Of a stretch of 64,000 nucleotides of DNA, positions 140-59,540 are shown piece by piece; position 1 is the first letter of the stretch, and every line of letters starts with the position of its first letter. The stretch comes from Bacteroidales bacterium (GTDB taxonomy: Bacteria > Bacteroidota > Bacteroidia > Bacteroidales > VadinHA17). A model generated the notes under the pieces. It was not told where the DNA came from. It saw only the letters and a program-made list of their open reading frames with translations, and ran no database searches. The position numbers were made by a program, and so were the translations under genes. The stretch spans positions 787 to 64,786 of the forward strand of contig PLML01000004.1 of assembly GCA_003141525.1 (NCBI GenBank), in the 5' to 3' direction.

Positions 140-718
140 ATGATTAATGCCTTAATTACTTCTGAAACAAGGATAAAGCTCCTCAGGAAGTTTTTCCTTA
201 ATAGCAGCACCAAGGCTCACCTACGGGGCTTAGAGTCTGAATTTGGAGAGTCCTCAAATGCAATCCGGCTTGAATTGAACAGGTTTGAAGAAGCCGGGCT
301 TCTGCATTCCCTCCGTGACGGCAATAAAAAGGTTTACCAGGCTAATCGTGATCATCCCTTATTTGGCGACATTCATAGTATTATAATGAAAGAGGCCGGT
401 ATTGACCGTGTTATAGATAAGGTGATTCATCGTTTAGGTAATCTTGTTTGCATTTATCTCACCGGCGATTTTGCCCGTGGTAAAGACAGTCCTGTTATAG
501 ATCTTATACTTGTGGGAGAGAATATTGACCGTGAGTATCTCGCCAGGAAAGTTGTGCAAGCTGAAGACCTGGTTGGAAGGAAGGTTAGTTACGTTGTTCT
601 TCATCCCGATGAAGCTGAAAATCATCTTTTAAGAGTAAAACCTGCAGATCTGCTACCGCTTTGGAACAGCGAAGAAAGTAAATTGATAATCCATCATCCT
701 GTTTCTACAGGAATATGA
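140..718 (+). CDS. ArsR-like winged-helix regulator with C-terminal nucleotidyltransferase-like domain
   Basis: 192-aa ORF. The N-terminal AHLRGLESEFGESSNAIRLELNRFEEAGLL resembles a wHTH. The C-terminal YLTGDFARGKDSPVIDLILVG resembles a minimal NTase core. Confidence 0.5.
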   Translation: MINALITSETRIKLLRKFFLNSSTKAHLRGLESEFGESSNAIRLELNRFEEAGLLHSLRDGNKKVYQANRDHPLFGDIHSIIMKEAGIDRVIDKVIHRLGNLVCIYLTGDFARGKDSPVIDLILVGENIDREYLARKVVQAEDLVGRKVSYVVLHPDEAENHLLRVKPADLLPLWNSEESKLIIHHPVSTGI

Positions 719-832
719 TGTTGACGATATAAGCAGTGTGTTCAAAATATAGCTGAAGTCACTGCAACCATAGGTAAATAGAGCTTGTCAGGCACTTCTC
801 AGGATGTGACTGACGGGGCGGAAGTTTGCCAG

Positions 833-877
833 AAAGCAAAGACAAAAGACAAAAGGAAAAAGACAAAAGTAAAAGTG
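833..877. repeat. purine-rich low-complexity arm, family A (AAAGACAAAAG units), left/outer
   Basis: The sequence aaagcaaagacaaaagacaaaaggaaaaagacaaaagtaaaagtg is the reverse complement of the CTTTTGTCTT-type arms at 2740-2814. Confidence 0.7.
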
Positions 878-900
878 TTTCGCATTTTTCGTTTCACGTT

Positions 901-942
901 CAGAGAAGCGCAGAGCGCAGAGCACAGGGCTCAGAGAACAGA
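901..942. repeat. left arm B (heptamer NCAGRGC x5)
   Basis: The sequence cagagaagcgcagagcgcagagcacagggctcagagaacag is an imperfect inverted partner of 1336-1381. Confidence 0.75.
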
Positions 943-971
943 ATAAATGACTTAGAAATAAATAAGAGATA

Positions 972-1334
972 ATGATAATGGACGATTTCAGATTTGAGAA
1001 GCTTGATATCTGGAAAGAATCAATTGAGATTTCGGATGTACTATTCGATTATGCAGACAAGGCTGACGATAAAAGACATTATAAATTTGCTGAACAATTA
1101 AGATCTGCAGGGATGAGTATATCAAACAATATTGCAGAGGGATCGGGTTCTTTCTCAGATAAGGAATTTGCTAATTTTTTGAATATATCCCGTCGTTCAA
1201 TTTTTGAATGTGCAAATATTCTTTTTATTTTCGAACGAAGAGGAATTATTAATCAAATAGAGAGAACTTCTATATATCTTAAACTAATAATATTAAGTAA
1301 GAAAATTACCAATTTCCGCAAATCTTTAAAATAA
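972..1334 (+). CDS. four-helix-bundle protein (23S rRNA intervening-sequence protein family, PF05635/TIGR02436), NIAEG subtype
   Basis: 120 aa. Family hallmarks are LDIWKESIEI, SISNNIAEGSGSFSDKEFANFLNISRRSIFE. It is flanked by the B arms. Confidence 0.85.
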   Translation: MIMDDFRFEKLDIWKESIEISDVLFDYADKADDKRHYKFAEQLRSAGMSISNNIAEGSGSFSDKEFANFLNISRRSIFECANILFIFERRGIINQIERTSIYLKLIILSKKITNFRKSLK

Positions 1335-1335
1335 A

Positions 1336-1381
1336 CTGCACCCTGAGCTCTGCGCCCTGCGCCCTGAGCTTCTTGTTCCCC
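1336..1381. repeat. right arm B
   Basis: The sequence ctgcaccctgagctctgcgccctgcgccctgagcttcttgttcccc reverse-complements into heptamers that match 901-942. Confidence 0.75.
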
Positions 1382-1385
1382 AAAA

Positions 1386-1417
1386 TTTGTCAGATAGATA
1401 AAAAGTATATACCTTTG
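1386..1417 (+). promoter_or_regulatory. candidate Bacteroidota-type promoter for the RHH-MazF pair
   Basis: TTTG at 1386-1389 and TACCTTTG at 1410-1417 with a 20-nt spacer. The ATG at 1440 lies 23 nt downstream. Confidence 0.4.
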
Positions 1418-1439
1418 CGATATACTTAAATTATACACA

Positions 1440-1670
1440 ATGAAGACACTCTCTTTAAAGCTCGACGACAACATCTTCAATGAGACCGAAGTTGTATTAA
1501 CAAAAGTCAAAAAATCGAGAAATCGCTATATAAATGAAGCTGTTGACTATTATAACCGTATCAATAAGAGAACCCTGATTTCACGAAAGCTTATCAAAGA
1601 ATCAAAGCTTGTCAGGAAAGAATCGCTGACAGTTCTTTCCGAATTTGAAAATCTCAATGATGAAAATTAA
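1440..1670 (+). CDS. putative ribbon-helix-helix antitoxin
   Basis: 76 aa. MKTLSLKLDDNIF...SRNRYINEAVDYYNR fits an RHH/CopG-like pattern. It overlaps the downstream MazF-like gene. Confidence 0.55.
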   Translation: MKTLSLKLDDNIFNETEVVLTKVKKSRNRYINEAVDYYNRINKRTLISRKLIKESKLVRKESLTVLSEFENLNDEN

Positions 1671-2004
1671 ACAATTTGATATCTGGATTGCGGATCTCGT
1701 ACCACAACGAGGAACAGAAACCGGCAAAGTAAGACCTGTTTTAATTGTTCAAACCAACCTTTTAAATAACGTGCACCCATCTACTTTTATTTGTCCCATT
1801 ACAACCAATGTAGAGAAAGACAGCGATATATTAAGGGTTCATATAAGAAAGGGAATCGCAAATCTCAAGATTGAATCTGATATTATGATTGATCAAATCA
1901 GAGCTATTGATAACAGAAGATTGTTAAATAAAATTGGCGAACTGACAAAAGAGCTTCAATTAAAAGTTAAGGATAATATCAAAATAATTTTTGATCTGGA
2001 CTAG
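1645..2004 (+). CDS. mazF: PemK/MazF-family toxin (mRNA interferase)
   Basis: FDIWIADLVPQRGTETGKVRPVLIVQTN...ICPITT...IMIDQIRAIDNRRL are classic MazF/PemK motifs. The true start may be an internal Met a few codons in. Confidence 0.8.
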   Translation: MKISMMKIKQFDIWIADLVPQRGTETGKVRPVLIVQTNLLNNVHPSTFICPITTNVEKDSDILRVHIRKGIANLKIESDIMIDQIRAIDNRRLLNKIGELTKELQLKVKDNIKIIFDLD

Positions 2005-2015
2005 CTCAATTGTTA

Positions 2016-2051
2016 AGGAGAAAGTAAGTAAAAAGTAAAAAGTAAAAAGTG
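2016..2051. repeat. left arm C (AAGTAAAA units)
   Basis: The sequence aggagaaagtaagtaaaaagtaaaaagtaaaaagtg is the inverted partner of 2697-2739. Confidence 0.75.
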
Positions 2052-2205
2052 TTTATTTATTATGAAGGAGAATGATTTAAAGGAACGTTTATTCCGTTTT
2101 GCGGTTAATGTGTTAAAAATGCTCGGAACATTAAAAGGGGGAAAAGAGACAGATGTTATAAAATATCAATTATCAAAATCAGCTACTTCATCTGGCGCTA
2201 ATTAT

Positions 2206-2493
2206 TCACCCTGTCAAATTGCATCAAATTGTTAAAAGATTTTTATTGTACATATGTTTTAAGGAGTTTGACCGATTTCAAATTTTACGTTGGTTTTACA
2301 TCAGATTTGATGCAAAGATTTGAGGCGCATAACGCGGGTAAAGTACCTTCAACCAAAAATCGGAGACCTTTTGAAATTGTATACTTCGAAGGTTGTCGCT
2401 CAAAAGAAGATGCAATTAATCGAGAGAAATATCTGAAAACATTTTATGGGAAGATGTTTTTGAAAAACCGCCTCAAATCTTATTTGACTGGGT
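2206..2493 (+). mobile_element. 288-bp GIY-YIG micro-element with inverted termini CCCTGTCAAAT/ATTTGACTGGG
   Basis: The left end is tcaCCCTGTCAAAT (2209-2219) and the right end is ATTTGACTGGGt (2482-2492). It carries only the 88-codon GIY-YIG ORF and sits precisely inside a conserved host codon block. Confidence 0.75.
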
Positions 2494-2495
2494 AG
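2229..2495 (+). CDS. small GIY-YIG nuclease family protein
   Basis: YVLRSLTDFKFYVGFTSDLMQRFEAHNAG...REKYLKTFYGKMFLKNRL carries the GIY/YIG, R and E motifs of the UPF0213-like single-domain GIY-YIG proteins. The start is non-ATG (TTG) in the track. Confidence 0.85.
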   Translation: MLKDFYCTYVLRSLTDFKFYVGFTSDLMQRFEAHNAGKVPSTKNRRPFEIVYFEGCRSKEDAINREKYLKTFYGKMFLKNRLKSYLTG

Positions 2496-2696
2496 AGAAT
2501 CTCAATCTGGATCCTCAAAGGCAGATTTTGCGAATAAAGTGAGAATTTCATTGCGAGAAATGCGCGAATCAAATTATTGGTTACGAATTATAAAGGAACT
2601 TTTCCCAAAAACAGAAAATATTGTATATTTAGTTGGCGAAAGCGAAGAGCTAGGAAAAATTCTTGCTTCAATTCTAATAAAATCACGGAACTGACT

Positions 2697-2739
2697 CATT
2701 CTTTACTTTTACCTTTTTACTTTTTACTTTTTACTTTAT
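2697..2739. repeat. right arm C
   Basis: The sequence cattctttacttttacctttttactttttactttttactttatc is the reverse complement of the AAGTAAAA units. Confidence 0.75.
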
Positions 2740-2814
2740 CCCACTTTTGTCTTGTGACTTTTGTCTTTTATCTTTAACCCCACTTTTGTCTTGTGACTTT
2801 TGTCTTTTATCTTA
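2740..2814. repeat. right/outer arm A, present as a 38-bp tandem duplication
   Basis: cccacttttgtcttgtgacttttgtcttttatctt occurs twice (2740-2776 and 2778-2814). It pairs with 833-877. Confidence 0.8.
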
Positions 2815-2825
2815 AACATAATATA

Positions 2826-3608
2826 ATGAAGCACCTCACCCTCATACTATCTACTGCCTTACTTCTGGCCGCTTCCTGTACCAGCCAAAAGAAACTAGCG
2901 TATCTGAATAATCTCCCCGAGCCAAAAGGTGAAGAGTCGTTTAACATGTCTATCCCGGACTATAAAATCCAGCCGCGCGATATACTTTATATTTCAGTAA
3001 AAGCTATGGCCCCTGATGGTTCAATTAAAGATTTCTTATCATCTGGTAGTAATAACGGGATGTACTTAACACAGGGTGATGCAGGAGGGGCTTTTATGGG
3101 CTATAATGTCAGCCCGGATGGGTACATTACACTAGTGCCAATTGGACAGATAAAAGTAAGTGGTCTTACACTGGAGGAAACCAGAAAAAAACTGCAGGAA
3201 TTAACAGAAAAAGTCTTCCTAAACTCAACTGTAGAATGTAAATTGCTCAGTTTTAAATTTACGGTGATTGGAGAAGTCAAAAGTCCGGGAGCATATATCA
3301 ATTACAATAATTACCTGACTGTTATTGAAGCAATTGGACGCGCCGGAGGAGTAGGCGACTTAGGAAACAGGAACCGGATCCTGGTTGTTCGTCCGATTGA
3401 TAAGGGAACCAAAACCTATAGAATTAATCTGCAGGATAAAAATATTCTTACATCAGAAGCATATTTTCTTCTTCCAAATGACGTGGTAATAGTGGAACCG
3501 GTGAGACAGAAGATCTTTAACATGAATGTGCCGACTATTTCTTTTGTAATCTCAACCTTCACAGCAACAATTACGATGACACTTTTGCTCATTAATTATT
3601 TGAAATAA
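2826..3608 (+). CDS. wza: polysaccharide export outer-membrane lipoprotein (Wza/BexD family)
   Basis: Lipoprotein signal MKHLTLILSTALLLAASC. Poly_export/SLBB-like motifs are PDYKIQPRDILYISV, GYITLVPIGQIKVSGLTLEE and VIGEVKSPG. The track ORF start at 2793 translates the repeat arm, so I use the Met at 2826. Confidence 0.85.
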   Translation: MKHLTLILSTALLLAASCTSQKKLAYLNNLPEPKGEESFNMSIPDYKIQPRDILYISVKAMAPDGSIKDFLSSGSNNGMYLTQGDAGGAFMGYNVSPDGYITLVPIGQIKVSGLTLEETRKKLQELTEKVFLNSTVECKLLSFKFTVIGEVKSPGAYINYNNYLTVIEAIGRAGGVGDLGNRNRILVVRPIDKGTKTYRINLQDKNILTSEAYFLLPNDVVIVEPVRQKIFNMNVPTISFVISTFTATITMTLLLINYLK

Positions 3609-3612
3609 AAAA

Positions 3613-3668
3613 TTCTAAGTTCAAAGTTCAAAGTTCAAAGTTCAATGTTCCAAGTTCCATGTTTAAAG
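3613..3668. repeat. left arm D (CAAAGTT units)
   Basis: The sequence ttctaagttcaaagttcaaagttcaaagttcaatgttccaagttccatgtttaaag is the inverted partner of 4361-4400. Confidence 0.75.
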
Positions 3669-3837
3669 ACATATTTATATGAAGATAGAGAAGTTTGAAG
3701 ATCTGGAGATTTGGCAAGAAGCCAGGGAGTTATGCAAAAGAGTCTTTGAAATAACTTCCGTCAGTCCGTTTTGCAATGACTTTAAATTTAGGGATCAGAT
3801 CAGAGCTTCATCTGGATCAGTAATGGATAATATAGCC

Positions 3838-4127
3838 TGCCCTGTGAAATAGCAAGATGTATTATGTATATATACTTATAAGCGAAAAAGATAACATGTT
3901 TTATACAGGTTATACATCAGACCTTGAAAATCGAATAGAAGAGCATTTGAAAGGGAAAGTAAATTCTACTAGGCACAGATTGCCTTTAAAGCTTGTCTAC
4001 TATGAATGTTCTATTAATCAGGATGATGCGCTTCATAGAGAGAAATATCTTAAAAGTACGTATGGCAAACGATATATTAAGAACCGTTTAAAACATTTTC
4101 TAAATGAGTAAATATTTCACAGGGCAA
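3838..4127 (+). mobile_element. 290-bp GIY-YIG micro-element with perfect 13-bp inverted termini GCCCTGTGAAATA
   Basis: GCCCTGTGAAATA at 3839-3851 and TATTTCACAGGGC at 4113-4125. The only cargo is an 84-codon GIY-YIG ORF. Confidence 0.8.
3857..4111 (+). CDS. small GIY-YIG nuclease family protein
   Basis: [30 protein letters not shown]...[18 protein letters not shown] is a paralog of the 2229-2495 product. Confidence 0.85.
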
Positions 4128-4360
4128 GAAGGCTTCGAACGTGGTGGAAATAAAGAGTTTATCCAGTTTCTGAGTATTGCCAAGGGATCTTGTGGTGAAG
4201 TCCGTTCACAATCTTATCGATCATTTGACTATAAATATATTAACCAGGAAATTTTGGATGAACTTATTTCCAGAACAATGCAACTAAGCAAGAAAATCTC
4301 ATCACTTATAGGATATTTGAAAAATAGCGAATTTAAAGGCTCAAAATTCCATACCTCATA

Positions 4361-4400
4361 ACTTTGAACCTTGAACCTTGAACATTTAACCTTGAACCTG
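4361..4400. repeat. right arm D
   Basis: The sequence actttgaaccttgaaccttgaacatttaaccttgaacctg runs directly into the wzc start codon. Confidence 0.75.
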
Positions 4401-6838
4401 TGACCATGGATCCAAATTATCCCTCCCCCCCTCAGCCAAACCTCCCCGAGGACGACAACCTCGACATAAAAAGATATCTAACTCTGTTCATGAGCAACTG
4501 GTACTGGTTTGCAATCTCATTATTTATTGCACTGACAGTTGCCTATGGCATAAACAGGTACTCCAGTAAACTATATACTATTTCGTCAACACTCATGATA
4601 AGTGATGACCAGTATTCAGGGTCGAGCAGAATTGTAAGCAGCGCAATCCCCGGAGGAGATATTTTCAGGAGCAAGCCAAACATAACAAATGAAATATCAA
4701 TACTGAAATCTTTCAGCCTCAATAAAAGAGTAATAGACTCATTACCCGAATTCAGGGTGGCATATTATGGTGTCGGAAAAAGAAACATCGCTGAGACCCA
4801 GCTTTATAAAAACTGTCCTTTCAGGGTAACATCAGAATCTGTTGATGTTCAGCCTAAAAATGTAAGAGTAAATATCATTATAAGTTCTGCAACAACTTAT
4901 TCACTGGAAATTAATGGGAATAAGAATGTTGAAAAGGACCTTAAATTTGGCCGGCTCTTCAGTAAAGATGGTTTTAAATTCATTATTGAATTGAGAGATC
5001 CGAATAATTTTAAATTTAATCCTAAAGTATCAAATAAATACTATTTTTATTTTACATCTTCTGACGAACTGGCAAACAATTACAGGGCAAATCTGAGTGT
5101 GGCACCGATTGAAAAAGATGCCACTATTGTTAATTTATCTAAAGTAGGTCTGGATCCGCAGCAGGAAGCTGATTACCTGAATAAACTTATGGAAGTATAT
5201 AGAAATCAGGGTTTGGAATCTAAGAATCATATTGCTGACACTACAATTGCTTTTATAGATAAACAACTCGGCTTTGTTGCAGATTCTCTTAAAAAGGCCG
5301 ATAATAAACTTCAGAGATTAAGACTTGACAACAAATTGATTGACCTCGGTAAGGATGGCACTCTTTTACAAACTCGTTTAGAGAAGTTTGCGAATGAAAA
5401 AGTATCCCTTAAGCTTCAATATTATTATTTTCAATATCTGAAAGAATATCTTGACACCAAAAACGAATCGGGTGATATTGTTTCTCCGAATGTTATGGGA
5501 ATTACCGAACCGACGTTAGGAAAACTGGTTCAGGAACTTTCAGAACTCCAGAAAAAGAAGAAAGAGATGTCTATGAACCTTTCAGCGGAGGTGCCGCCGT
5601 TAAATCTATTAACTGAAAACATACACAAAATAAGAATGGCTCTTACCGAGAATATAAAGAGTAGTTTTGCCAGTATAGAACATTTAATTGACGATTCAGA
5701 AAAAAATATAGAAGAGGTGAACCAGGAGATAAATAAACTTCCGGGAACCGAAAGTAAGAGGATAGGTATTCAGAGAGACTTTGATATAAGCAATACTGTT
5801 TATACCTATCTTCTTGAGAAAAGAGCTGAAACCGGTATTGCAAAGGCTTCAAATGTCCCGGACAGCAAAATTGTTGATTATGCAAATATCATTAATACCG
5901 TCCAAATTAAACCAAAGCCAGGAGGGAACAATTTAAAGGCATTACTTTTTGGCATATTAATTCCCGCGGTCATTTTATTCTTATTATATTATTTAAATAA
6001 CAAAATTATCGACAACGGGGACATTATTAAAAAAACAAATGTACCGATAATGGGGTATGTCAGTCACAGCGAATTTAAAAAAGAGATCCCTGTTATTGAT
6101 AACCCGAAATCAGCTCTTTCAGAATCATTCCGTTCAATCAGAACATCTTTACGATATTTTACAAAACAATCCAGCCATTCTGTTATTGCCATTACATCCA
6201 CTATAAGCTCGGAGGGGAAAACTTTTATATCAATTAATCTTGCAGCAATAACGGCACTGCTTGGTAAAAAAGTATTATTAATCGGTCTCGATCTTCGGAG
6301 ACCAAGGATACACAAAATCCTGGGGATTGACAATAGCGAGGGTCTCAGCACCTATTTAATAGGTAATTGTGAATATAAAGAAGTTATAAAGGAAACATCA
6401 TTAAAGAATCTGTATTATGCTACTTCCGGACCAGTACCCCCAAATCCGGCTGAACTGCTAGAGGAGGAAAGGATGGATGCATTTATTGTGAAAGCGAAAA
6501 AGGAGTTTGATTATATATTTATAGATACCCCACCGATTGCGATAGTTTCAGATACTTTATTAATTGCCAGGTTTGTAGATGTTAATCTTTTTATTGTGAG
6601 GCAGAGGTATACCTCAAAAAATACATTGGAATTAATTGAGGAATTATACAAGGATGAAAAACTTAAACACATGGGGATTATTATTAATGATATAAGCCTT
6701 ACAGGTTATTATGGGTATGGGATAAGATACGGCTATTATAAGGGTTATGGATATTCATACGGTAAAAACTACTATGGGCAGTATTCTTACAGCCGGTACG
6801 GATATTCAGATAAAGAACATGGATATTATAATACTTAA
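4400..6838 (+). CDS. wzc: chain-length determinant / tyrosine autokinase (Wzc/GumC family)
   Basis: 812 aa with a Wzz-like periplasmic coiled-coil region and two TM segments. Walker A is SEGKTFISINLA, followed by DLRRP and IDTPP. The C-terminal tail is Tyr-rich (YYGYGIRYGYYKGYGYSYGKNYYGQYSYSRYGY). The start is GTG 4400 or ATG 4406. Confidence 0.9.
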   Translation: MTMDPNYPSPPQPNLPEDDNLDIKRYLTLFMSNWYWFAISLFIALTVAYGINRYSSKLYTISSTLMISDDQYSGSSRIVSSAIPGGDIFRSKPNITNEISILKSFSLNKRVIDSLPEFRVAYYGVGKRNIAETQLYKNCPFRVTSESVDVQPKNVRVNIIISSATTYSLEINGNKNVEKDLKFGRLFSKDGFKFIIELRDPNNFKFNPKVSNKYYFYFTSSDELANNYRANLSVAPIEKDATIVNLSKVGLDPQQEADYLNKLMEVYRNQGLESKNHIADTTIAFIDKQLGFVADSLKKADNKLQRLRLDNKLIDLGKDGTLLQTRLEKFANEKVSLKLQYYYFQYLKEYLDTKNESGDIVSPNVMGITEPTLGKLVQELSELQKKKKEMSMNLSAEVPPLNLLTENIHKIRMALTENIKSSFASIEHLIDDSEKNIEEVNQEINKLPGTESKRIGIQRDFDISNTVYTYLLEKRAETGIAKASNVPDSKIVDYANIINTVQIKPKPGGNNLKALLFGILIPAVILFLLYYLNNKIIDNGDIIKKTNVPIMGYVSHSEFKKEIPVIDNPKSALSESFRSIRTSLRYFTKQSSHSVIAITSTISSEGKTFISINLAAITALLGKKVLLIGLDLRRPRIHKILGIDNSEGLSTYLIGNCEYKEVIKETSLKNLYYATSGPVPPNPAELLEEERMDAFIVKAKKEFDYIFIDTPPIAIVSDTLLIARFVDVNLFIVRQRYTSKNTLELIEELYKDEKLKHMGIIINDISLTGYYGYGIRYGYYKGYGYSYGKNYYGQYSYSRYGYSDKEHGYYNT

Positions 6839-6883
6839 GGTTAAGGCCAAGTAAGGTTAAGGTTAAGGCTAAGGTTGAGAAGA
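6836..6883. repeat. left arm E (AAGGTTAAGG/GTTGAG units)
   Basis: The sequence taaggttaaggccaagtaaggttaaggttaaggctaaggttgagaag begins on the wzc stop codon. Confidence 0.8.
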
Positions 6884-6897
6884 AGAATAAATAAAAC

Positions 6898-7254
6898 ATG
6901 ATTTACATAAGTTTTACTGAAATGCCAGTTTGGCAGAAAGCACATAAGCTTGCAATTGAAGTATTTAATCTAACAATTAATCTTCCAAGGTCTGAAGATT
7001 ACGGATTGACATCCCAGATTCGTAAATCATCAAATGGAGTAGCTGCCTGTATCGCTGAAGGATTTGGAAGAAGTACTAAAAAAGACAAATCAAATTTTTA
7101 TATAATTGCACGGGGTTCCTCATTCGAAACCCAGAACCATTTATTATATAGCAACAAAGTTGGTTATTTTGAAACTCAAATTACTCAACGTCTTTTTGAT
7201 GAGTATAATGAGCTCATTTACGAGTTGAATAAACTTATTAAATCCCTGGAATAA
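6898..7254 (+). CDS. four-helix-bundle protein (23S rRNA IVS protein family), NIAEG-like subtype
   Basis: 118 aa with MPVWQKAHKLAIEVF, SSNGVAACIAEGFGRSTKKDKSNFYIIARGSSFETQ. Confidence 0.85.
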   Translation: MIYISFTEMPVWQKAHKLAIEVFNLTINLPRSEDYGLTSQIRKSSNGVAACIAEGFGRSTKKDKSNFYIIARGSSFETQNHLLYSNKVGYFETQITQRLFDEYNELIYELNKLIKSLE

Positions 7255-7278
7255 GACAGGAACTAAGGTTTATGGATT

Positions 7279-7368
7279 CTCAACCTCAACCTTAACCTCA
7301 ACCTTAGTAACCTCAGCCTCAACCTCAACCTCAACCTCAGTCTCAACCTCAACCTCAACCTTAGCCTC
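7279..7368. repeat. right arm E (CTCAACC/TTAACC units, about 90 bp)
   Basis: The sequence ctcaacctcaaccttaacctcaaccttagtaacctcagcctcaacctcaacctcaacctcagtctcaacctcaacctcaaccttagcctc is the reverse complement of arm E but longer. Confidence 0.8.
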
Positions 7369-7439
7369 ATTTTATGGTTATAACAATAAAAAGTCAACAT
7401 TTATCACTATTTTTGTGGTTATAATCTGGTAAATTAAAT

Positions 7440-8660
7440 ATGATGATCAGAAGAGATTTATATTTAAATCAGCTTTTCGGCTATATTGATAAGCCTTTTA
7501 TCAAGGTCATTACCGGCATCAGACGAAGTGGTAAGTCCGCCATTCTGATGTTACTTCGTGATGAATTGTTGAGAAAAGGGATTAATGGGATAAATGTTAT
7601 CTATATAAATTTTGAAAGTTTTGAATTTTCAGAAATAGATGACGCCGAAAAGCTTTACAAATTTGTCAAAACTAAAATTAAAACCAGGAAACGTTATTAT
7701 ATTCTACTCGACGAGATCCAGGAAGTAGGATCATGGGAAAAAGCTGTTAACTCTTTTTTAGTTGATTTCAACGCTGATATTTACATTACAGGATCCAACT
7801 CCCGGCTTTTGTCTTCGGAATTGGCCACTTATCTGGCTGGACGCTATGTTGAAATTCACCTTCATACACTGTCCTTTTCTGAATATCTTCTTTTCAAACA
7901 AATACGTCTTAATGAAGAGACTTCCGATCTGTATCGTGAATTTGGATTTTTTTTACGTCTTGGGGGATTTCCGGCTCTTAATACCGGGGAATACACTTAT
8001 GAATCTGCCTATAAGGTAGTATACGATATTTATTCATCCGCTATTCTTCGCGATACAGTACAACGATATAATATCAGGGATGTTGAACTTCTGGAACGTG
8101 TTGTCAGGTACGTGTTTGACAATATAGGTAATAAATTCTCGGCAAAAAATGTAGCAGACTATTTTAAAAGCCAGCAGCGCAAGATAGATCTTAACACTGT
8201 ATATAATTACCTCACTGCTCTTGAGGGAGCATTTATTGTGTACCGGATACCACGTTATGATGTTAAGGGTAAAGAGATACTTAAGACATTTGAAAAATTT
8301 TATACAGCTGATCAATCGTTACTGTATGCCGTTATGGGGTATAAGGAGAGGCATATTTCAGGTGTTCTTGAAAATATTGTAATGCTTGAGCTAAAACGAA
8401 GAGGGTACAATGTATTTGTTGGAAAATCGGATGACAAAGAGATTGACTTTATTGCTGAATTGAAAGGGAATAAAATTTACATTCAGGTCGCTTACAAAAT
8501 GTCGGAGCAAACTACAATTGACCGTGAGTTTGCTCCATTACATGAAATAAAAGACAACTATCCTAAATACGTGATAACAATGGATGAGACATGGCAGGAT
8601 AATATTGAAGGCGTTCAGCACATGCACATTGCTGATTTTTTACTTATGAAGGAATATTAG
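7440..8660 (+). CDS. AAA-family ATPase with DUF4143-type C-terminal domain
   Basis: 406 aa. Walker A is GIRRSGKS and Walker B-like is YILLDEIQ. The overall layout is typical of AAA_14+DUF4143 proteins. Confidence 0.7.
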   Translation: MMIRRDLYLNQLFGYIDKPFIKVITGIRRSGKSAILMLLRDELLRKGINGINVIYINFESFEFSEIDDAEKLYKFVKTKIKTRKRYYILLDEIQEVGSWEKAVNSFLVDFNADIYITGSNSRLLSSELATYLAGRYVEIHLHTLSFSEYLLFKQIRLNEETSDLYREFGFFLRLGGFPALNTGEYTYESAYKVVYDIYSSAILRDTVQRYNIRDVELLERVVRYVFDNIGNKFSAKNVADYFKSQQRKIDLNTVYNYLTALEGAFIVYRIPRYDVKGKEILKTFEKFYTADQSLLYAVMGYKERHISGVLENIVMLELKRRGYNVFVGKSDDKEIDFIAELKGNKIYIQVAYKMSEQTTIDREFAPLHEIKDNYPKYVITMDETWQDNIEGVQHMHIADFLLMKEY

Positions 8661-8688
8661 TTGCGGGTTCTGCATTCCGCATCAAAAT

Positions 8689-8886: not shown

Positions 8887-9294
8887 ATGGTAACAAAAAA
8901 GAAAATAGTGGTTATAATTGAAAAGACAGATACCGGATTTTCTGCTTATTCAGAAGACTATCCGGTATTTACAACAGGAGCAACAGTGAATGAGTTGCTT
9001 GAAAATACCAATGAAGGTTTCACCCTTTACTTTGGGGATAAAAATCATGGTACGCAACAGATTTACTATGAAATAGATTTTAAGCAGTTCTTTCAATACT
9101 ATAAGGTGATAAACTCCAAAGCACTTGCTGAGAAGATCGGCATGAATCCTACTCTTTTATCTCAATATGTGAGAGGTCATAAAAGACCATCCGAGAAACA
9201 AAGCCGAAGGATTCTGTATGGTATTAACAAGATCGGACAGGAACTGGCTGAAATGAGTGTTATTTATGAAAAACAAGATAAAAGACAAAAGTAA
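8887..9294 (+). CDS. hicB: HicB-family antitoxin with C-terminal HTH
   Basis: It has a UPF0150-like N-terminus (VVIIEKTDTGFSAYSEDYPVFTTGATVNELLEN) and an XRE-like HTH (LAEKIGMNPTLLSQYVRG). It lies directly downstream of hicA. Confidence 0.75.
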   Translation: MVTKKKIVVIIEKTDTGFSAYSEDYPVFTTGATVNELLENTNEGFTLYFGDKNHGTQQIYYEIDFKQFFQYYKVINSKALAEKIGMNPTLLSQYVRGHKRPSEKQSRRILYGINKIGQELAEMSVIYEKQDKRQK

Positions 9295-9354
9295 AAAGAT
9301 AAAAGTAGGGCCGAGCGTTAAGAATTTGCCCGGTGGGCAAATTTAGCGACGGAG
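9271..9354. repeat. composite left arm (family A units plus unique segment G containing palindrome AATTTGCC-N5-GGCAAATT)
   Basis: gataaaagtagggccgagcgttaagaatttgcccggtgggcaaatttagcgacggag matches the reverse complement of 12477-12543 with only a few mismatches. Confidence 0.8.
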
Positions 9355-9367
9355 CCAGTTTGTAGCG

Positions 9368-9508
9368 ATGGAAAAGAAAAATGACCTTTGCGAAAGGCTT
9401 TTTGAATTTGCAGTAAGAGTCATTGAATTTTTGAAAACATTATCCTATTCACCTGAAAATAAAACTATTCGGACACAACTGTCAAAAAGCGCTGATTGGA
9501 TTAGTTGA
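9368..9508 (+). pseudogene. 5' fragment of a four-helix-bundle gene (GANY subtype)
   Basis: MEKKNDLCERLFEFAVRVIEFLKTLSYSPENKTIRTQLSKSA is nearly identical to the 13474 copy. It then diverges and stops (DWIS*). Confidence 0.75.
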
Positions 9509-9589
9509 AAGCGGGGTTGTGGAGAAAGTTGAAGGAAATTATTTCATATCTGATCCATTCTTTAAGAGGTTTCTTTTCCGTTACGCCTG
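9492..9589 (+). pseudogene. possible C-terminal remnant of a DUF234-type ATPase
   Basis: LIGLVESGVVEKVEGNYFISDPFFKRFLFRYA* resembles the wHTH tail (Y.I.DPF..FWF) of DUF234 ATPases. It has no N-terminal part. Confidence 0.3.
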
Positions 9590-9643
9590 ATGGCGTTACG
9601 CTTGTGGGCGTAAAAAACAACGCAATGTTAAAAAAACTTAAAA

Positions 9644-9853
9644 ATGACAAATAAAGAACAAATACAACGAGATATAGCAATTGCTTTTGATTTCGTTGAA
9701 CAAATAATAGATAACCCGGATATACTTGATAAGATACCTGATGGTACTACGATTACTTTTCTTGACTGTGAAAATGTAAAGCCGGAGAAACCTATTAGTC
9801 AAGATACTGCAAAAAAATACGTCAACGTTAAAAGGCACTTTGAAGTATTATAA
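9644..9853 (+). CDS. small hypothetical protein (69 aa)
   Basis: An ORF with a clean ATG. I do not recognise a domain with confidence. Confidence 0.35.
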   Translation: MTNKEQIQRDIAIAFDFVEQIIDNPDILDKIPDGTTITFLDCENVKPEKPISQDTAKKYVNVKRHFEVL

Positions 9854-9865
9854 AATCTATGGCAT

Positions 9866-9903
9866 AAGATTAAGGCTAAGGTTAAGGTTAAGGTTGAGAG
9901 GTT
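9866..9903. repeat. E-type left arm (second copy)
   Basis: The sequence aagattaaggctaaggttaaggttaaggttgagaggtt has its inverted partner at 11661-11697. Confidence 0.7.
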
Positions 9904-10053
9904 ACTCTACCTAAGTCATGAAAATATTTTATCTGCTAGACGCCTGACGCCAGACGCCGGACACCCCGAAGAGTTCATATGGTCGTTAAAAGATATTAAT
10001 CTTCAGGTACAAATTATTTCTTTTAGTACATTTGTTAACTAATAATTAAAAAG

Positions 10054-10221
10054 ATGGTAACAACAATAAAAAAAGGAACATCACGCGAAAAAATCCGGTT
10101 AGCCTTAAAAAAACGACAAGTAAAAATCAAAAGTCCTGATTTAAAAAAATATTGCGGTTCTATCACCCTCCTTGAGGACCCAATGAAACTACAAAAAGAA
10201 TGGCGCAATGAATGGGACTAA
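10054..10221 (+). CDS. putative antitoxin of the VapC module (55 aa, below track threshold)
   Basis: My own translation is MVTTIKKGTSREKIRLALKK...LEDPMKLQKEWRNEWD*. It overlaps the PIN gene start by 14 nt. A TACATTTG -7-like box lies at 10027-10034. Confidence 0.5.
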   Translation: MVTTIKKGTSREKIRLALKKRQVKIKSPDLKKYCGSITLLEDPMKLQKEWRNEWD

Positions 10222-10579
10222 TATCCTTCTTGATACCAATATTGTGCTTTATCTCCTTAACGGAGAAGAGACACTGATTCCTCTTTTAGATGAGAAAAAT
10301 CTTTTTCTATCATTTATAACCCAATTGGAGTTATTGGGTAACCGGCATTTAAAACCCAGCGACATCCTGAAAATTAAACAATTTATTTCTGAGTGTACAG
10401 TGATTGATATTACACCTGCTATAAAGGAATTAGTTATAAATATTCGTCAAAAATACAACATCAAGCTTCCTGACTGTATTATTATAGCAACTTCCCTTTG
10501 GCTAAATATGCCTTTAATTACAGCTGATCACGATTTTAAAAAGATTGACATAGCCGACCTGATATATTTTCAAATATAA
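10208..10579 (+). CDS. vapC: PIN-domain toxin (VapC-like)
   Basis: ILLDTNIVLYLL at the N-terminus gives the first acidic residue. It also has ITQLELL, LPDCIIIATSL and ITADHDF, the acidic quartet pattern of PIN domains. Confidence 0.8.
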   Translation: MNGTNILLDTNIVLYLLNGEETLIPLLDEKNLFLSFITQLELLGNRHLKPSDILKIKQFISECTVIDITPAIKELVINIRQKYNIKLPDCIIIATSLWLNMPLITADHDFKKIDIADLIYFQI

Positions 10580-10626
10580 CCAGGACAAAAAAGATAACTA
10601 AAAGGGCTTATTTTAGAATTCAGGCA

Positions 10627-10725
10627 CTTGAACTTTGAACCTTAAACTTTGAACTTTGAACTTTTATCTTTTTACTTTTGTCTTTTGTCTTATTCCATAC
10701 TTTTGCCTTTTTACTTTTGTCTTGA
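10627..10725. repeat. stacked orphan right arms (D-type then A-type)
   Basis: cttgaactttgaaccttaaactttgaactttgaac is followed by ttttatctttttacttttgtcttttgtcttattccatacttttgcctttttacttttgtcttga. No matching left arm lies nearby. Confidence 0.65.
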
Positions 10726-10851
10726 TAAACCCTCAACAAATGACCAATGTTGTCCAGATAACGCACCTCTCTAAGATTTACTGATTGGTGAAAATAACGA
10801 AAACAATAAAAGGGAGGGCATAATATTACCTGAAATCTTTGCGCAGTTTTA

Positions 10852-10883
10852 TTTGGCGAACAATCCCTTATACGTTAAATTTG
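10852..10883 (+). promoter_or_regulatory. candidate Bacteroidota-type promoter for the second PIN module
   Basis: TTTG at 10852-10855 and TAAATTTG at 10876-10883 with a 20-nt spacer. It lies inside the 5' extension of track ORF 10853, which argues for the Met at 10904 as the true start. Confidence 0.4.
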
Positions 10884-10903
10884 TATATAAAACTTATAAA
10901 ACG

Positions 10904-11140
10904 ATGAACACTACTTCATATAAAAGAACGTACAGTTTCCCTTTCACATTCGATGATGTATTAAAGCTGATTAAATCATTCTCAATAGAGGATAAAGTGA
11001 GATTGGAAAAGGAATTGGAAAAAGAGACACTCGTTTACCGGGCACAAAAATTGTCAGAAAAAATTAAGTCAAATGATCTCACTATTGAGGATGTAGTAGC
11101 TGAAGTTGTGGAATACAGAAAGAAACAGAATGCAAAATGA
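10904..11140 (+). CDS. putative antitoxin partner of PIN protein
   Basis: 78 aa from MNTTSYKR. It has a charged coiled C-terminus and overlaps the downstream PIN gene. Confidence 0.45.
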   Translation: MNTTSYKRTYSFPFTFDDVLKLIKSFSIEDKVRLEKELEKETLVYRAQKLSEKIKSNDLTIEDVVAEVVEYRKKQNAK

Positions 11141-11537
11141 AGTTTTCATTCTGGATAGTAACATCTGGATAAACTATGTGATCACAAAGCGACTGGACAA
11201 ATTAGTTACACGGATTTACCACCATCAATTGACGGTTCTGACAAGTCACCACCTTATTACAGAAATACAGGAGGTATTGACTCGATCAAAGTTTAAGAAA
11301 TATCTTAAACTTTCTGACATTAAAGAATTAATTGCAATACATTTAAAACTATGCCGGCTTGTGGATACTGATGAAACTACAGACCAACTTACGGACCCCA
11401 AAGATAATTTCTTGCTAAATTTATATAACACAGGAAAAGCCACCGTAATTGTGAGCGGTGATAAAGAATTTCTCCATGAGGCAAGCGAATTAAATTACCG
11501 TGTTATGACGCTTAAAGAGTTTGAGTTATCCCATTAG
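11130..11537 (+). CDS. PIN-family toxin (TIGR00305-like)
   Basis: VFILDSNIWINYV, LITEIQEVL and DPKDNFLLNLYNTGKATVIVSGDKEFL are the typical D..D..GD pattern of this PIN subfamily. The start is taken at MQNE, which overlaps the upstream stop. Confidence 0.75.
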   Translation: MQNEVFILDSNIWINYVITKRLDKLVTRIYHHQLTVLTSHHLITEIQEVLTRSKFKKYLKLSDIKELIAIHLKLCRLVDTDETTDQLTDPKDNFLLNLYNTGKATVIVSGDKEFLHEASELNYRVMTLKEFELSH

Positions 11538-11580
11538 CAGTGACCCCGAATGCTGAAAAACAGAAGCTCCCTCCTTAGAA

Positions 11581-11697
11581 TTCAAAACGAGAACCGACCC
11601 GCTTTTCACTTTCTCCTTGTTATCTTTACTTTTGTCTTGTGACTTTTGTCTTTTATCTTTATTTCAACCTCAACCTCAACCTAAACCTGAACCTCAA
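11581..11697. repeat. stacked arms: unique segment J, A-type right arm, E-type right arm
   Basis: tcaaaacgagaaccgacccgcttttcactttctc is the partner of 12225-12305. acttttgtcttgtgacttttgtcttttatctt is the A family. caacctcaacctcaacctaaacctgaacctcaag is the partner of 9866-9903. Confidence 0.65.
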
Positions 11698-11988: not shown

Positions 11989-12123
11989 CAAAACTGTAAT
12001 TGTTCCTTGCCCTGTGAAATAGCACAAAGCCCCCGCCCTGGCCATATTTCACAGGGCCGGCACCCCGGAAGGAAATCCCTATTGGTACTTTTCGTTCAAT
12101 AATAAGACAATCAGGATTAAACC
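11985..12123 (+). pseudogene. decayed HicA-like toxin gene
   Basis: It starts MTKL and then hits a stop. After the 49-bp insert is mentally removed, the same frame reads FVPSAPRKEIPIGTFRSIIRQSGL, a HicA C-terminal motif. The central dsRBD-like part is missing and the 3' end appears frameshifted. Confidence 0.45.
12010..12058. mobile_element. 49-bp miniature derivative of the 3838-4127 element
   Basis: GCCCTGTGAAATAGCA...ATATTTCACAGGGC has termini identical to the 290-bp element, with only about 20 nt between them. Confidence 0.7.
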
Positions 12124-12379: not shown

Positions 12380-12543
12380 ACTTTTGTCTTTTTCCTTTCT
12401 CCTTTTGCCTTTTGCCTTGATTCTACTTTTATCTTGTGACTTTTGTCTTTTGTCTTGATCCACCCCTGCATGCTGTCCCCTTCGCTAAATTTGCCTACCA
12501 GGCAAATTTTTAACGCTCGGTCCTGTCTTTTATCTTTATAGAG
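12380..12543. repeat. composite right arms (long A-type, then G', then short A')
   Basis: cttttgtctttttcctttctccttttgccttttgccttgattctacttttatcttgtgacttttgtcttttgtcttga is followed by ccttcgctaaatttgcctaccaggcaaatttttaacgctcggtcctgtcttttatcttt. It ends one nt before the wzm ATG. Confidence 0.8.
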
Positions 12544-13410
12544 ATGAATTCCAATTCTGAAAAATCACATACAATAATATATGAGCCCAACCAGCGATTG
12601 AAAATAGGTTGGGTAAAAACCTGGATAATACTTGTTCGAAACATTGTTCATAGCTGGGATTTGATTTATCAGCTATTTCGAAGAGATTTTTTAATGAGCT
12701 ATAAGAAATCATTTATTGGTGCGGGCTGGATTTTTATTTCTCCATTATTAGGGGTTGTCTCATGGGTATTTTATAATTCTACTGGTATCCTTAAGCCAGG
12801 TGATGTAGGAATCCCCTATCCTGCCTATGTTTTGTTAAGTACCTCAATTTATGGCTTGTTTGGTGGATTTTTTACCTCAGCCAGCGGGACCTTAACTGCC
12901 GGTTCTGGTTTTATAACCCAGGTAAATTATCCCCACGATGCCTTACTGATAAAGCAGGCTATGCTTCAGCTTGCGAATTTTGCAATTGTGTTTTTCATTA
13001 ATATTATCGTTTTGTTTTCCTTTAGGGTAGTTCCTAGTTTATATATATTCTTATTGCCATTATTGATTCTTCCCATCTTTTTCATTGGCTCGGCAATAGG
13101 TTTGTTTGCCTCTGTCATTGAAGTAGTTGCCTCTGATATAAACAAAGTAATTACTTTTATGATTGGCTTATTATTGTTTATTACACCAGTCATATATTCA
13201 TCAAAAGTGCAGAACCCCTTTCTGCAGAAAATGATCAAATGGAATCCATTAACCTATCTTATTGGAGGTGCAAGAGATATGATCATATACGGAAAGATGG
13301 AACACCTTGACACATATTTTATTTGCGCCGGAGTATCATTCCTGCTTTTTCTATTTTCCTGGCGCATTTTTTACATTACCGAACAACGGGTAATTGAAAA
13401 GATGATTTAA
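12544..13410 (+). CDS. wzm: ABC-2 type polysaccharide exporter permease (Wzm)
   Basis: 288 aa with six predicted TM stretches. The N-terminal LIYQLFRRDFLMSYKKSFIGAGW is typical of ABC-2/Wzm permeases. Confidence 0.85.
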   Translation: MNSNSEKSHTIIYEPNQRLKIGWVKTWIILVRNIVHSWDLIYQLFRRDFLMSYKKSFIGAGWIFISPLLGVVSWVFYNSTGILKPGDVGIPYPAYVLLSTSIYGLFGGFFTSASGTLTAGSGFITQVNYPHDALLIKQAMLQLANFAIVFFINIIVLFSFRVVPSLYIFLLPLLILPIFFIGSAIGLFASVIEVVASDINKVITFMIGLLLFITPVIYSSKVQNPFLQKMIKWNPLTYLIGGARDMIIYGKMEHLDTYFICAGVSFLLFLFSWRIFYITEQRVIEKMI

Positions 13411-13441
13411 ATGCTAAACAATAAACGCGAAAGGTAAGATC

Positions 13442-13478
13442 TAAAGATAAAAGACAAAAGTCACAAGATAAAAGTGGA
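13442..13478. repeat. left arm A (third copy)
   Basis: taaagataaaagacaaaagtcacaagataaaagtgg is the exact reverse-complement style of the 32-bp ACTTTTGTCTTGTGACTTTTGTCTTTT motif. Confidence 0.8.
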
Positions 13479-13951
13479 AGAAAAGAAAAATGATTTGTGC
13501 GAGAGACTCTTTGAGTTTGCAGTAAGAGTAATTGAATTTTTAAAAACACTACCTTATTCCCCAGAAAATAAAACTATTCGTACGCAATTATCAAAAAGTG
13601 CTTGTTCGTCAGGAGCTAATTACTCGCCCTGTCAAATTGCATCAAATTGTTAAAAGATTTTTATTTTATATATGTTTTAAGGAGTTTAACTGATTTCAAA
13701 TTCTATGTTGGTTTTACATCAGATTTGATGCAAAGATTTGACAGGGTGAAGAGTCTCAAAGCGGTTCATCCAAGGCAGACTTTTCTAACAAAGTCAGGAT
13801 TTCCCTTCGTGAAATGAGAGAATCAAATTATTGGCTCAGAATAATTATAAGAACTGTTAAAGAAGTTAATGGGCCAGAACTCGACTACCTTATAAAAGAA
13901 TCAGGAGAACTCAAAAACATCCTTGGCTCTATAGTCCAAAAAACCAGATAA
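13474..13951 (+). pseudogene. four-helix-bundle gene (GANY subtype) interrupted by a 124-bp miniature element
   Basis: The 5' half reads (V/M)EEKKNDLCERLFEFAVRVIEFLKTLPYSPENKTIRTQLSKSACSSGANY (to 13623). The 3' half reads EESQSGSSKADFSNKVRISLREMRESNYWLRII... (13748-13951). Removing 124 nt restores the frame. Confidence 0.85.
13624..13747. mobile_element. 124-bp non-autonomous (MITE-like) derivative of the 2206-2493 element
   Basis: The termini are CCCTGTCAAAT (13627-13637) and ATTTGACAGGG (13736-13746). The interior equals the first ~115 nt of the full element, including the 5' part of the GIY-YIG ORF, with 6 mismatches by my count. Confidence 0.8.
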
Positions 13952-13956
13952 TCAAC

Positions 13957-13999
13957 CTCTTTTTACTTTTGTCTTGTGACTTTTGTCTTTTGTCTTTGA
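13957..13999. repeat. right arm A
   Basis: The sequence ctctttttacttttgtcttgtgacttttgtcttttgtctttga. Confidence 0.8.
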
Positions 14000-14052
14000 T
14001 CATTAAACCCTCAACGCCTCAACAAATAAACACATCAACCATTACCCACTAC

Positions 14053-59529: not shown

Positions 59530-59540
59530 GGAAGAAGTTA

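Follow-up and report, generated by a model that had tools for sequence, protein, structure and literature searches.

In a stretch of 64,000 nucleotides from a Bacteroidales bacterium (GenBank assembly GCA_003141525.1, contig PLML01000004.1, positions 787 to 64,786; hereafter the window), small genes encoding four-helix-bundle (4HB) proteins of family PF05635 were found to be clamped between inverted arms made of short tandem repeats. Our analysis leads us to conclude, with good confidence, that arm, 4HB gene and arm make up a single inherited, mobile cassette that is homologous to the intervening sequences (IVSs) of rRNA and here occupies intergenic spacers of a polysaccharide operon. The cassettes fill the space between the stop codon of one host gene and the start codon of the next, and do so in the sense orientation. 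Comparison with related loci indicates in addition that the arms travel and diverge with the gene and that the cassettes decay to gene-less array hairpins.

The left arm of cassette D (6835-7369, + strand) is a (TAAGGT/TGAGGT)n hexamer array (6835-6883) that begins on the TAA stop codon of a Wzc-like gene (4406-6838, + strand), while the right arm is a complementary (CTCAAC/CTTAAC)n array (7279-7369). Between the two lies a gene for a 118-residue 4HB protein (6898-7254) that matched PF05635 in a profile search (E-value 2.9e-31; 108.3 bits against a cut-off of 33.8), and the closest solved structure to this protein was PDB 2GSC (E-value 4e-11). An earlier annotation made from the sequence alone (the original prediction) had described these arms as reverse complements surrounding a 4HB gene and had proposed that their stem energy be compared with that of dinucleotide-shuffled arms. 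The complementarity was borne out: (i) the repeat finder detected complementarity over 30 nt at 90% and over 38 nt at 79%; and (ii) the arm RNA duplex was calculated at −51.5 kcal/mol versus −25.3 ± 3.6 kcal/mol for the shuffles (z −7.2), with none of 300 shuffles as low. The minimum free energy and centroid folds of 6826-7380 were both closed by the arm stem (z −3.5).

Six further cassettes had been proposed to share this layout, and all were found to be real, with z-scores of −3.2 to −9.4 for each cassette's own pair of arms; the outer pair of cassette G was the weak point (z −1.9). When all arms were set against each other in a cross-matrix, the own partner was the best or near-best. These six cassettes are likewise on the + strand. 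Cassette A (900-1368; z −5.3) consists of a GCGCAGA-type array (900-936), a 4HB gene (972-1334) and a CCCTGAG/CTGCGCC array (1336-1368), and its unit also accompanies relatives at related loci L006 (2661-3017) and L021 (2101). In cassette B (2016-2740), AAGTAAA (2016-2051) and TTTACTT (2697-2737) arrays flank a 4HB gene whose N-terminal (2062-2235) and C-terminal (2539-2694) halves are separated by a GIY-YIG insert (open reading frame [ORF] 2229-2495). Cassette C (3609-4407), between the Wza and Wzc genes, is built similarly from an AAAGTTC array (3609-3668), 4HB halves at 3679-3852 and 4104-4361, a GIY-YIG gene (3857-4111) with flanks CCCTGTGAAATA / TATTTCACAGGG, and a right GAACCTT array (4360-4407) that extends to the Wzc start codon; its unit also occurs with a relative in L014 (6538-6924). 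Cassette E (13443-13997; z −9.4), between an ABC permease and an ABC ATPase gene, has AAAGACA (13443-13474) and TCTTTTG (13958-13997) arrays around a 4HB N-half (13474-13653), a degenerate GIY-YIG stretch (13647-13817) and a C-half (13814-13951). Cassette F (59534-60010), between asnB-like and hisH-like genes, carries AAAGTACTT/AAAGTGAGC arrays (59534-59617), a 4HB gene (59626-59985) and a complementary arm (59967-60010). Cassette G (60606-61167), between hisH-like and hisF-like genes, differs in having two right arrays: a GGTGATT-type left arm (60606-60660) is followed by a spacer, an AATCACT right array (60726-60787), the 4HB gene (60788-61141) and an AATCACC right array (61133-61167). The left arm can either form a gene-less hairpin with the upstream right array (z −6.0) or enclose the gene with the downstream one (z −1.9), a mutually exclusive two-stem layout that is also kept in L171 (1793-2440).

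Filled, empty and decayed forms of the same junctions were found when hisH-like orthologues at 78-86% identity were located and their junctions compared. At the asnB-hisH junction, a full F-type cassette is present in the window and in L174, L169 has an empty site of 10 nt, L171 is degenerate, and L172 (126 nt) and L173 (198 nt) are decayed with both arms retained; the L172 hairpin still holds 33 nt of the start of the cassette ORF at 91% identity. At the hisH-hisF junction, L169 and L172 are empty (TAA-ACT-GTG, 3 nt), a gene-less hairpin of 64 nt is found in L174, a G-type cassette with GGTGATT/AATCACC arms occupies the site in the window and in L171, and L173 contains an intact E-type 4HB gene with AAAGACA/TGTCTTT arms. 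Empty sites at orthologous operon junctions, which the original prediction had named as something to look for, are hence present at both positions, and no target-site duplication was visible between filled and empty junctions. From this comparison it follows that (i) the arms belong to the insert and not to the host spacer; (ii) the arms arrive with the clade of the gene; (iii) one junction can be colonized more than once; and (iv) gene-less array hairpins arise by internal deletion. In L002, a close relative of the window, the same modules recur in a different arrangement whose break points fall exactly at arrays, the equivalent of window 9482-9899 (98% identical) being fused directly to the equivalent of 6852-8678 (95%), and recombination between like arrays therefore reshuffles the cargo.

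The architecture was next examined in 153 full-length 4HB genes from the window and 160 related loci, the latter picked by 4HB homology; many of these loci are metagenome-assembled genomes (MAGs) or metagenome contigs, in which repeat copy numbers may be collapsed. Inverted arms (local score of at least 24 between the 100-nt flanks) were detected around 59% of the 153 4HB ORFs and 3.9% of 788 other ORFs, a 15-fold excess that is relative to neighboring genes of the same loci and not to whole genomes. Local alignment scores were used for this comparison as raw duplex energies of 4HB and other genes are confounded by GC content. The best array had a period of 6 in 74 flanks, 7 in 35, 8 in 15 and 9 in 1. 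On the coding strand, 106 of the 153 genes had a G-rich upstream and a C-rich downstream flank, and 3 had the opposite arrangement. The downstream neighbor was co-oriented in 64 of 72 cases and the upstream neighbor in 53 of 75, with 21 of the 22 exceptions being one orthologous Chryseobacterium/Cloacibacterium site; the presence of this one divergent site across Chryseobacterium points to vertical inheritance of the cassette there. The left array began a median of 3 nt after the upstream stop codon, and a median of 12 nt separated the right array from the downstream ATG, with the start codon of neighboring genes taken as the first ATG of the ORF. The layout was found in Bacteroidota, Chloroflexota, Cyanobacteriota and Pseudomonadota; in the Gemmatimonadota locus L166 the arrays flanking the 4HB gene read as direct and not inverted.

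Arms and genes were also found to be inherited together. Relatives of the cassette D protein were compared from 80 genomes, among them peat Bacteroidales MAGs and genomes of Prolixibacteraceae, Lentimicrobium, Chitinophagaceae, Sphingobacteriales, Chloroflexota and more than 20 Chryseobacterium species. Almost all carry (RAGGYT)n arrays before the gene and (ARCCTY)n arrays after it, in many cases beginning at the stop codon, and the RAGGYT hexamer is kept in this clade down to 45% protein identity and across phyla. The GCGCAGA, AAAGTTC and AAAGACA units similarly stay with their 4HB clades across genomes. Relatives of the cassette G protein on 80 metagenome contigs (G+C 28-63%) have inverted arrays, mostly heptamers, of very diverse units, and these arms diverge widely between relatives at 50-60% identity. 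Overall, the 6-mer content of the arms correlated with 4HB protein identity (Mantel rho 0.43; 0 of 300 permutations). The ratio of nonsynonymous to synonymous substitutions (dN/dS) of 0.05-0.10 for the 4HB proteins, and of about 0.05 for the cassette D gene, indicates that the protein is under strong purifying selection. These data did not uphold the view that structure alone is conserved in the arms, as the units co-vary with the 4HB clade, recur within the window and, for RAGGYT, persist across phyla. The units likewise proved not to be private to each cassette, as had been claimed: AAAGACA arrays also occur at 838 and 9275 and, as the reverse complement, at 2729, 10660, 11620 and 12381; TAAGGT/TCAACC also occurs at 9865 and, as the reverse complement, at 11664; and AAAGTTC also occurs at 10628 as the reverse complement. 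Some of these recurrent arrays bracket several modules while others are orphans.

IVSs of rRNA have been known since about 1990, and the window cassettes share the anatomy of those that bear an ORF, in agreement with their original assignment as IVS-type modules. A plasmid search revealed one such IVS in L167, where a PF05635-like ORF on plasmid AZO_p2 of Azospirillum lipoferum lies inside a 23S rRNA gene (Rfam large-subunit [LSU] rRNA match 277-3324), apparently in the helix-45 region as judged by flanking sequence. Its arms, TCAGAGGACGGATGACAGAGGACGG... and ...CCGTCCTCTGTCTTCTGTCATCCGTCTTCTGA, are purine-rich and then pyrimidine-rich tandem arrays, of the same polarity as in the window cassettes, and form a closing stem (z −8.2). 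The Coxiella burnetii IVS in helix 45 has a 28-bp terminal stem that is cut by RNase III in vitro, with ends mapped in vivo in the stem, and S23p is preceded there by GACAGAT heptamers in tandem, two or three depending on the strain, the 5′ cut falling at the first repeat (PMC4990558). The likeness to IVSs (including those of Leptospira) thus extends to (i) a PF05635 gene in the loop of a long, stable stem closed by complementary terminal sequences; (ii) an upstream arm of tandem purine-rich repeats, as in Coxiella (GACAGAT ×3) and L167; and (iii) a strain-variable repeat copy number and a sporadic distribution with signs of horizontal spread. The differences are that 23S rRNA genes (helix 9, 25 or 45) do not host the window cassettes, which lie between protein-coding cistrons, with others between tRNA genes (L099) or in a cas operon (L165); that many cassettes of different clades occur per locus; and that the cassette protein is under strong purifying selection, whereas S23p was deemed expendable by the Coxiella authors (PMC4990558). 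As originally proposed, the cassettes sit in spacers of a protein-coding operon: their flanks are protein-coding genes, neither rRNA nor any other Rfam family was matched in the window, and when 44 related loci were scanned as well, none of the cassettes matched a known RNA family. Matches were confined to the tRNAs that flank L099, the LSU rRNA in which L167 lies and, elsewhere, a single group II intron and a single CRISPR repeat.

Several cassettes of the related loci illustrate this range of settings. Nostoc edaphicum has a 4HB gene with (GGGAGTA)n/(TACTCCC)n arms, and the same layout was seen in Riemerella. Two tRNA genes flank the cassette of L099 (187-791), whose arms are (CGTCGTT/CGTGGTT)n, so that rRNA is not the only type of stable-RNA operon in which such a cassette is placed. 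On plasmid pANA02 of Anabaena sp. 90, an (ACAGGTG)n/(CACCTGT)n cassette (L165, 1495-1863) was observed between cas6 and cas4 of a type I-D locus. The FLSHclust survey names '23S rRNA IVP' among CRISPR-linked domains (PMC10910872), and insertions such as L165 may be the source of that link. In L082 (2237-3346), L107 (1597-2316), L129 (1559-2413) and L004 (3112-3957), host genes were found between two cassettes or hairpins of the same unit family, and the complementary arrays on either side of these host genes have the opposite polarity, C-rich 5′ and G-rich 3′; a single operon transcript could therefore form alternative pairings over long distances.

The cassette genes had been described as having no recognizable promoter, and consistent with this no TAnnTTTG −7 box was found between arm and ATG for any of the window 4HB genes, an assignment that relies on a consensus whose frequency in the window is no higher than chance. 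A scan for sigma-70 promoters and terminators was set aside as uninformative for Bacteroidota. TAnnTTTG boxes were observed just 5′ of genes for a MazE-like protein (1410-1417), an AAA_14/DUF4143 ATPase (7408-7415) and the antitoxin of a PIN module (10027-10034); judging from these boxes, such accessory modules may have promoters of their own, unlike the 4HB genes.

With regard to mechanism, we rate the chances as about even that the arms pair in the operon transcript and are cut by RNase III, a proposal made by analogy to rRNA IVSs, as RNase III processing is known for Coxiella. A cassette of this kind would lack its own promoter and be transcribed along with the operon; its arrays would zip into a 30-50-bp stem with the 4HB ORF looped out, which would place the upstream stop codon beside the downstream start codon, and RNase III would probably cut the arm stem. 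Stem formation would render the insertion harmless and may keep the flanking cistrons coupled. The stem may also mask the C-rich, G-poor arm, which could otherwise resemble a Rho loading site, and this would offer a rationale for the polarity: a C-rich arm made first would be Rho-site-like, while one made second would be captured at once by the waiting G-rich arm.

Several findings do not sit easily with these conclusions. In about 20 species of Chryseobacterium and Cloacibacterium, a conserved TATTTTTG box follows the left array within a divergent intergenic region, and the left array may there be outside the 4HB mRNA. In L011, L016, L018, L019 and L021 the array order is direct instead of inverted. 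A comparison of sense and antisense duplexes and wobble counts in two clades revealed no sense-strand excess of G·U-compatible mismatches (sense against antisense duplex energies of −39.9 and −40.4, P = 0.84, in one comparison and of −46.8 and −47.4, P = 0.82, in the other), and in the closest relatives of the window cassette the antisense duplex was the more stable; this result neither supports nor excludes RNA pairing. Finally, the D-clade hexamer is kept far past synonymous saturation (dS > 1.7), which is not predicted by a purely structural role. The G·U result, the Chryseobacterium box and the D-clade hexamer together weigh against a role at the RNA level only. With regard to the box, a strongly conserved ATATTTTAAGTATTTTTGA sequence was observed about 25-45 nt 5′ of the 4HB ATG in Chryseobacterium L034, L038-L048, L051-L057 and L075, where it sits between the left array and the start codon and resembles the Bacteroidota −7 motif TAnnTTTG.

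Because of these three findings, we kept as a serious rival, though one we hold to be somewhat doubtful, the explanation that the cassette acts at the DNA level, with the arrays serving as hairpins, cruciforms or portable homology that drive insertion, excision and exchange, the 4HB protein recognizing its own arms, and RNA pairing being a by-product. The nearest analogue would be a RAYT gene with its own REP sequences on either side, of which gene-less REPIN copies are dispersed through the genome. The lack of G·U bias, the position of the Chryseobacterium array upstream of a promoter-like box and the persistence of the D-clade unit across phyla would all suit this explanation, as would the different module order of L002 with break points at arrays, the scattering of the same unit families as orphan arms and gene-less hairpins, and the arrival of independent clades at the same hisH-hisF junction. 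It would also accord with the proposal that the IVS ORF serves mobility, made by Ralph and McClelland in 1993 in the form in which it is cited in PMC4990558. Yet a symmetric DNA substrate does not predict the fixed polarity (106:3) relative to gene and transcription or the near-constant co-orientation with the operon, although common descent and selection on expression could yield both. The explanation is also at odds with the lack of target-site duplication and with the wide differences between G-clade arms at 50-60% identity. To our knowledge, no nuclease or recombinase motif is present in PF05635. No recombinase had been recognized in the original reading of the window, and this was confirmed by family scans, which found no recombinase, transposase or reverse transcriptase among the window ORFs scanned (ATG-started, at least 90 amino acids), leaving none encoded nearby.

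Arrays of this type could instead be independent regulatory simple-sequence repeats, such as the cyanobacterial heptamers or TAACTGA repeats, that control translation or transcription and near which 4HB genes merely land. Heptamer arrays near start codons have been reported in Nostoc, Beggiatoaceae, Bacteroidetes and Xanthomonas with 4HB genes unmentioned, and 219 of the 494 arrays in the studied loci were more than 200 nt from a 4HB ORF (275 were within that distance). We nonetheless find this explanation improbable, as the empty orthologous junctions (3-nt and 10-nt spacers) are free of any array, arrays appear with the gene and their unit tracks its clade, the gene-less L172 hairpin still holds its 33 nt of cassette ORF start, and no such repeats occur in the 45 kb of core genes of the window. 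Two narrower ideas were tried and rejected: mimicry of Shine-Dalgarno and anti-Shine-Dalgarno sequences (GAGGT and GGTGAT versus ACCTC and ATCACC) suits two unit families only and not AAAGACA, AAGTAAA, AAAGTTC, GCGCAGA and others, and a function of the arrays as stop codons in all frames suits some heptamers (TAGTGAT) and not hexamers or stop-less units. Chance pairing of A/G-rich with C/T-rich low-complexity repeats, or an artefact of MAG assembly, gains something from the duplexes of cassettes B, C and F, whose z-scores are only −3.2 to −3.9 since shuffles of such arms still pair fairly well. This last explanation, to which we give almost no weight, is refuted by the cross-matrix in which own partners were best or near-best, by the 15-fold excess over neighboring genes, and by the same architecture in finished genomes and plasmids of cultured Nostoc, Anabaena, Riemerella, Azospirillum and Chryseobacterium.

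The cassettes were also compared with other known systems. Like the repetitive extragenic palindromes (REPs) of the REP/REPIN-RAYT system, they have a single gene flanked by inverted copies of its own short repeat, the repeat occurs elsewhere as gene-less hairpin doublets, and each gene clade has its own repeat type; unlike that system, the gene is PF05635 and has no HUH/Y1 (IS200/IS605-like) transposase fold, the arms are tandem arrays of 6-9-nt units and not a unique palindrome, and placement is strictly polar between stop and start codon. Intergenic tandem heptamers, often in convergent inverted pairs able to form stem-loops, have been described (PMC4692102), and the short tandemly repeated repetitive (STRR) and heptamer arrays (Nostoc GGGGAYT, inverted pairs of Xanthomonas GGGAATC, and TAACTGA) resemble the cassette arms in being intergenic tandem heptamers from the same set of phyla; the 4HB genes of Nostoc and Anabaena are themselves flanked by heptamers (GGGAGTA, ACAGGTG and CAGGAGT). 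Reports of heptamer arrays treat them as repeats in their own right, of unknown function and with no 4HB or IVS link (PMC4692102, PMC4679880, bioRxiv 2022.06.06.494920). Integron cassettes are likewise small, promoter-less, co-oriented, arranged in arrays and equipped with imperfect inverted repeats whose structure is conserved over sequence, but their attC site is a local hairpin at the one (3′) cassette end whereas the 4HB arms enclose the gene, no IntI integrase (by family scans) or attI site was found in the window, and the cargo of the 4HB cassettes is nearly always of the same gene family. The processing stalks of rRNA and translational-coupling stems also pair distant sequences around a gene-sized loop as an RNase III substrate or for stop-start coupling; these are fixed host structures and not mobile cassettes, so that the parallel would be one of functional analogy only. 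Insertion sequences and miniature inverted-repeat transposable elements differ in that the cassettes have no target-site duplication or transposase and that their arms differ between clades. For the accessory protein Avd of diversity-generating retroelements, no reverse transcriptase was present among the scanned window ORFs, the bAvd profile scored 37.2 against a cut-off of 40, and there was no phage match: neither the viral-contig search (clade of the cassette A gene at 972) nor the phage search (clade of the gene at 60788) returned any.

Three of the seven window 4HB genes (2062-2694, 3679-4361 and 13474-13951) were found to be interrupted by an insert, about 290 bp long, that contains a GIY-YIG ORF of 84-88 amino acids and has its own termini, CCCTGT[CG]AAAT, in inverted orientation. 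The point of insertion is a conserved ...NIA|EG... / ...ANY|EE... motif. Such elements are located at 2236-2538, 3836-4125 and 13654-13813 in the window, at 2299-2556 in L021 and at 835-1095 in L029, and in L029 the termini were seen to flank a GIY-YIG ORF adjoining an upstream coding stretch. At its length the insert has no room for a group I intron core. The element looks like a homing-type parasite of these small selfish genes. A gene-less palindrome at 12010-12058, CCCTGTGAAATAGCA...ATATTTCACAGGGC, has termini as in the GIY-YIG element and could be a solo-termini derivative or an excision footprint of it. A second GIY-YIG family of about 105 amino acids was observed in Chryseobacterium and Cloacibacterium (L030 5699-6010, L040 5679-6002 and L062 5702-6013), with another inverted repeat on either side that is perfect and about 25 bp long (TTGTCATGCTGAAAGCATCTAAACA / complement).

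The window itself (G+C 32%) is a polysaccharide locus with its genes on a single strand, as determined by family scans of its ORFs. It includes genes for Wza (Poly_export/SLBB; 2826-3608, + strand), an ABC-2 permease and Wzt (12544-15282), and asnB-, hisH- and hisF-like genes (57706-61941), together with aminotransferases, epimerases and many glycosyltransferases. An array scan detected no tandem arrays of the arm type in the 45 kb of core biosynthetic genes (14-59.5 kb of the window), and the arrays therefore mark zones where accessory genes were inserted, namely 4HB genes, MazEF, HicAB and PIN modules, and the AAA_14/DUF4143 ATPase. Apart from the arms of the seven cassettes, all on the + strand, these zones contain an outer AAAGACA array (838-874) that is complementary (z −3.7) to an outer CTTTTGTCTTGTGA array (2729-2817) ending just 5′ of the Wza start codon, the pair enclosing cassette A, the MazEF module and cassette B. 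A disrupted eighth cassette (9275-9508) consists of an AAAGACA array (9275-9307) and a truncated E-type 4HB N-terminus (9368-9508). A TAAGGT array at 9865-9895 has no 4HB gene, and its counterpart in L002 is directly 5′ of a D-type 4HB gene. Right-type arrays were found as TTGAACT and then CTTTTGT orphans 3′ of a PIN toxin-antitoxin module (10628-10691), as TTTACTTTTGTCT and then TCAACC (11620-11697), the TCAACC part (from 11664) being the inverted partner of 9865-9895, and as CTTTTGT 5′ of the ABC permease gene (12381-12456), complementary to 13443-13490. The TAAGGT array at 9865 and its TCAACC partner at 11664 enclose two PIN toxin-antitoxin modules and no 4HB gene, and comparison of 9865-11697 with L002 suggests that the cargo between like arms appears to be exchangeable. 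An inverted pair of another kind, 9308-9350 / 12475-12520 (GGCCGAGCGTTAAGAATTTGCCCGGTGGGCAAATTTAGCG / its complement), lies about 3.1 kb apart, is unique and not tandem, has a small palindrome within each arm, and brackets a segment rich in toxin-antitoxin genes.

ORF-bearing IVSs with heptamers are already published, as are intergenic heptamer arrays and inverted pairs as stand-alone repeats, and the origin and function of IVSs are still described as unclear (PMC4990558). Our literature search, which was thin on subscription journals, found no description of PF05635 genes outside rRNA as array-clamped cassettes, nor of their clade-specific arms, fixed polarity, stop-to-start placement or decay to gene-less hairpins. 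A bolder proposal, which we put forward as speculative and rather unlikely, is that PF05635 cassettes are an autonomous, phylum-spanning class of mobile element whose 4HB protein would recognize its own arms and promote insertion between stop and start codons and in rRNA helix loops, with decay yielding the heptamer and hexamer hairpins of Bacteroidota, Cyanobacteriota (STRR-like) and Xanthomonas, and with rRNA IVSs as the special case noticed first. If the conclusion that arms and 4HB gene form one IVS-homologous cassette is true, rRNA IVSs would be one niche of a much larger gene-in-hairpin family whose members are found, in several phyla, in the spacers of operons, in clusters of tRNA genes and within cas operons. 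It would likewise mean that filled, empty and decayed sites are naturally abundant in cultivable, tractable hosts (Chryseobacterium, Riemerella and Nostoc), and that co-occurrence of PF05635 with CRISPR or polysaccharide loci may only mark where cassettes are tolerated, which calls for caution in annotation. A testable origin would thereby be at hand for the hairpins that heptamer and hexamer arrays form between genes, the function of which has been a matter of debate for decades.

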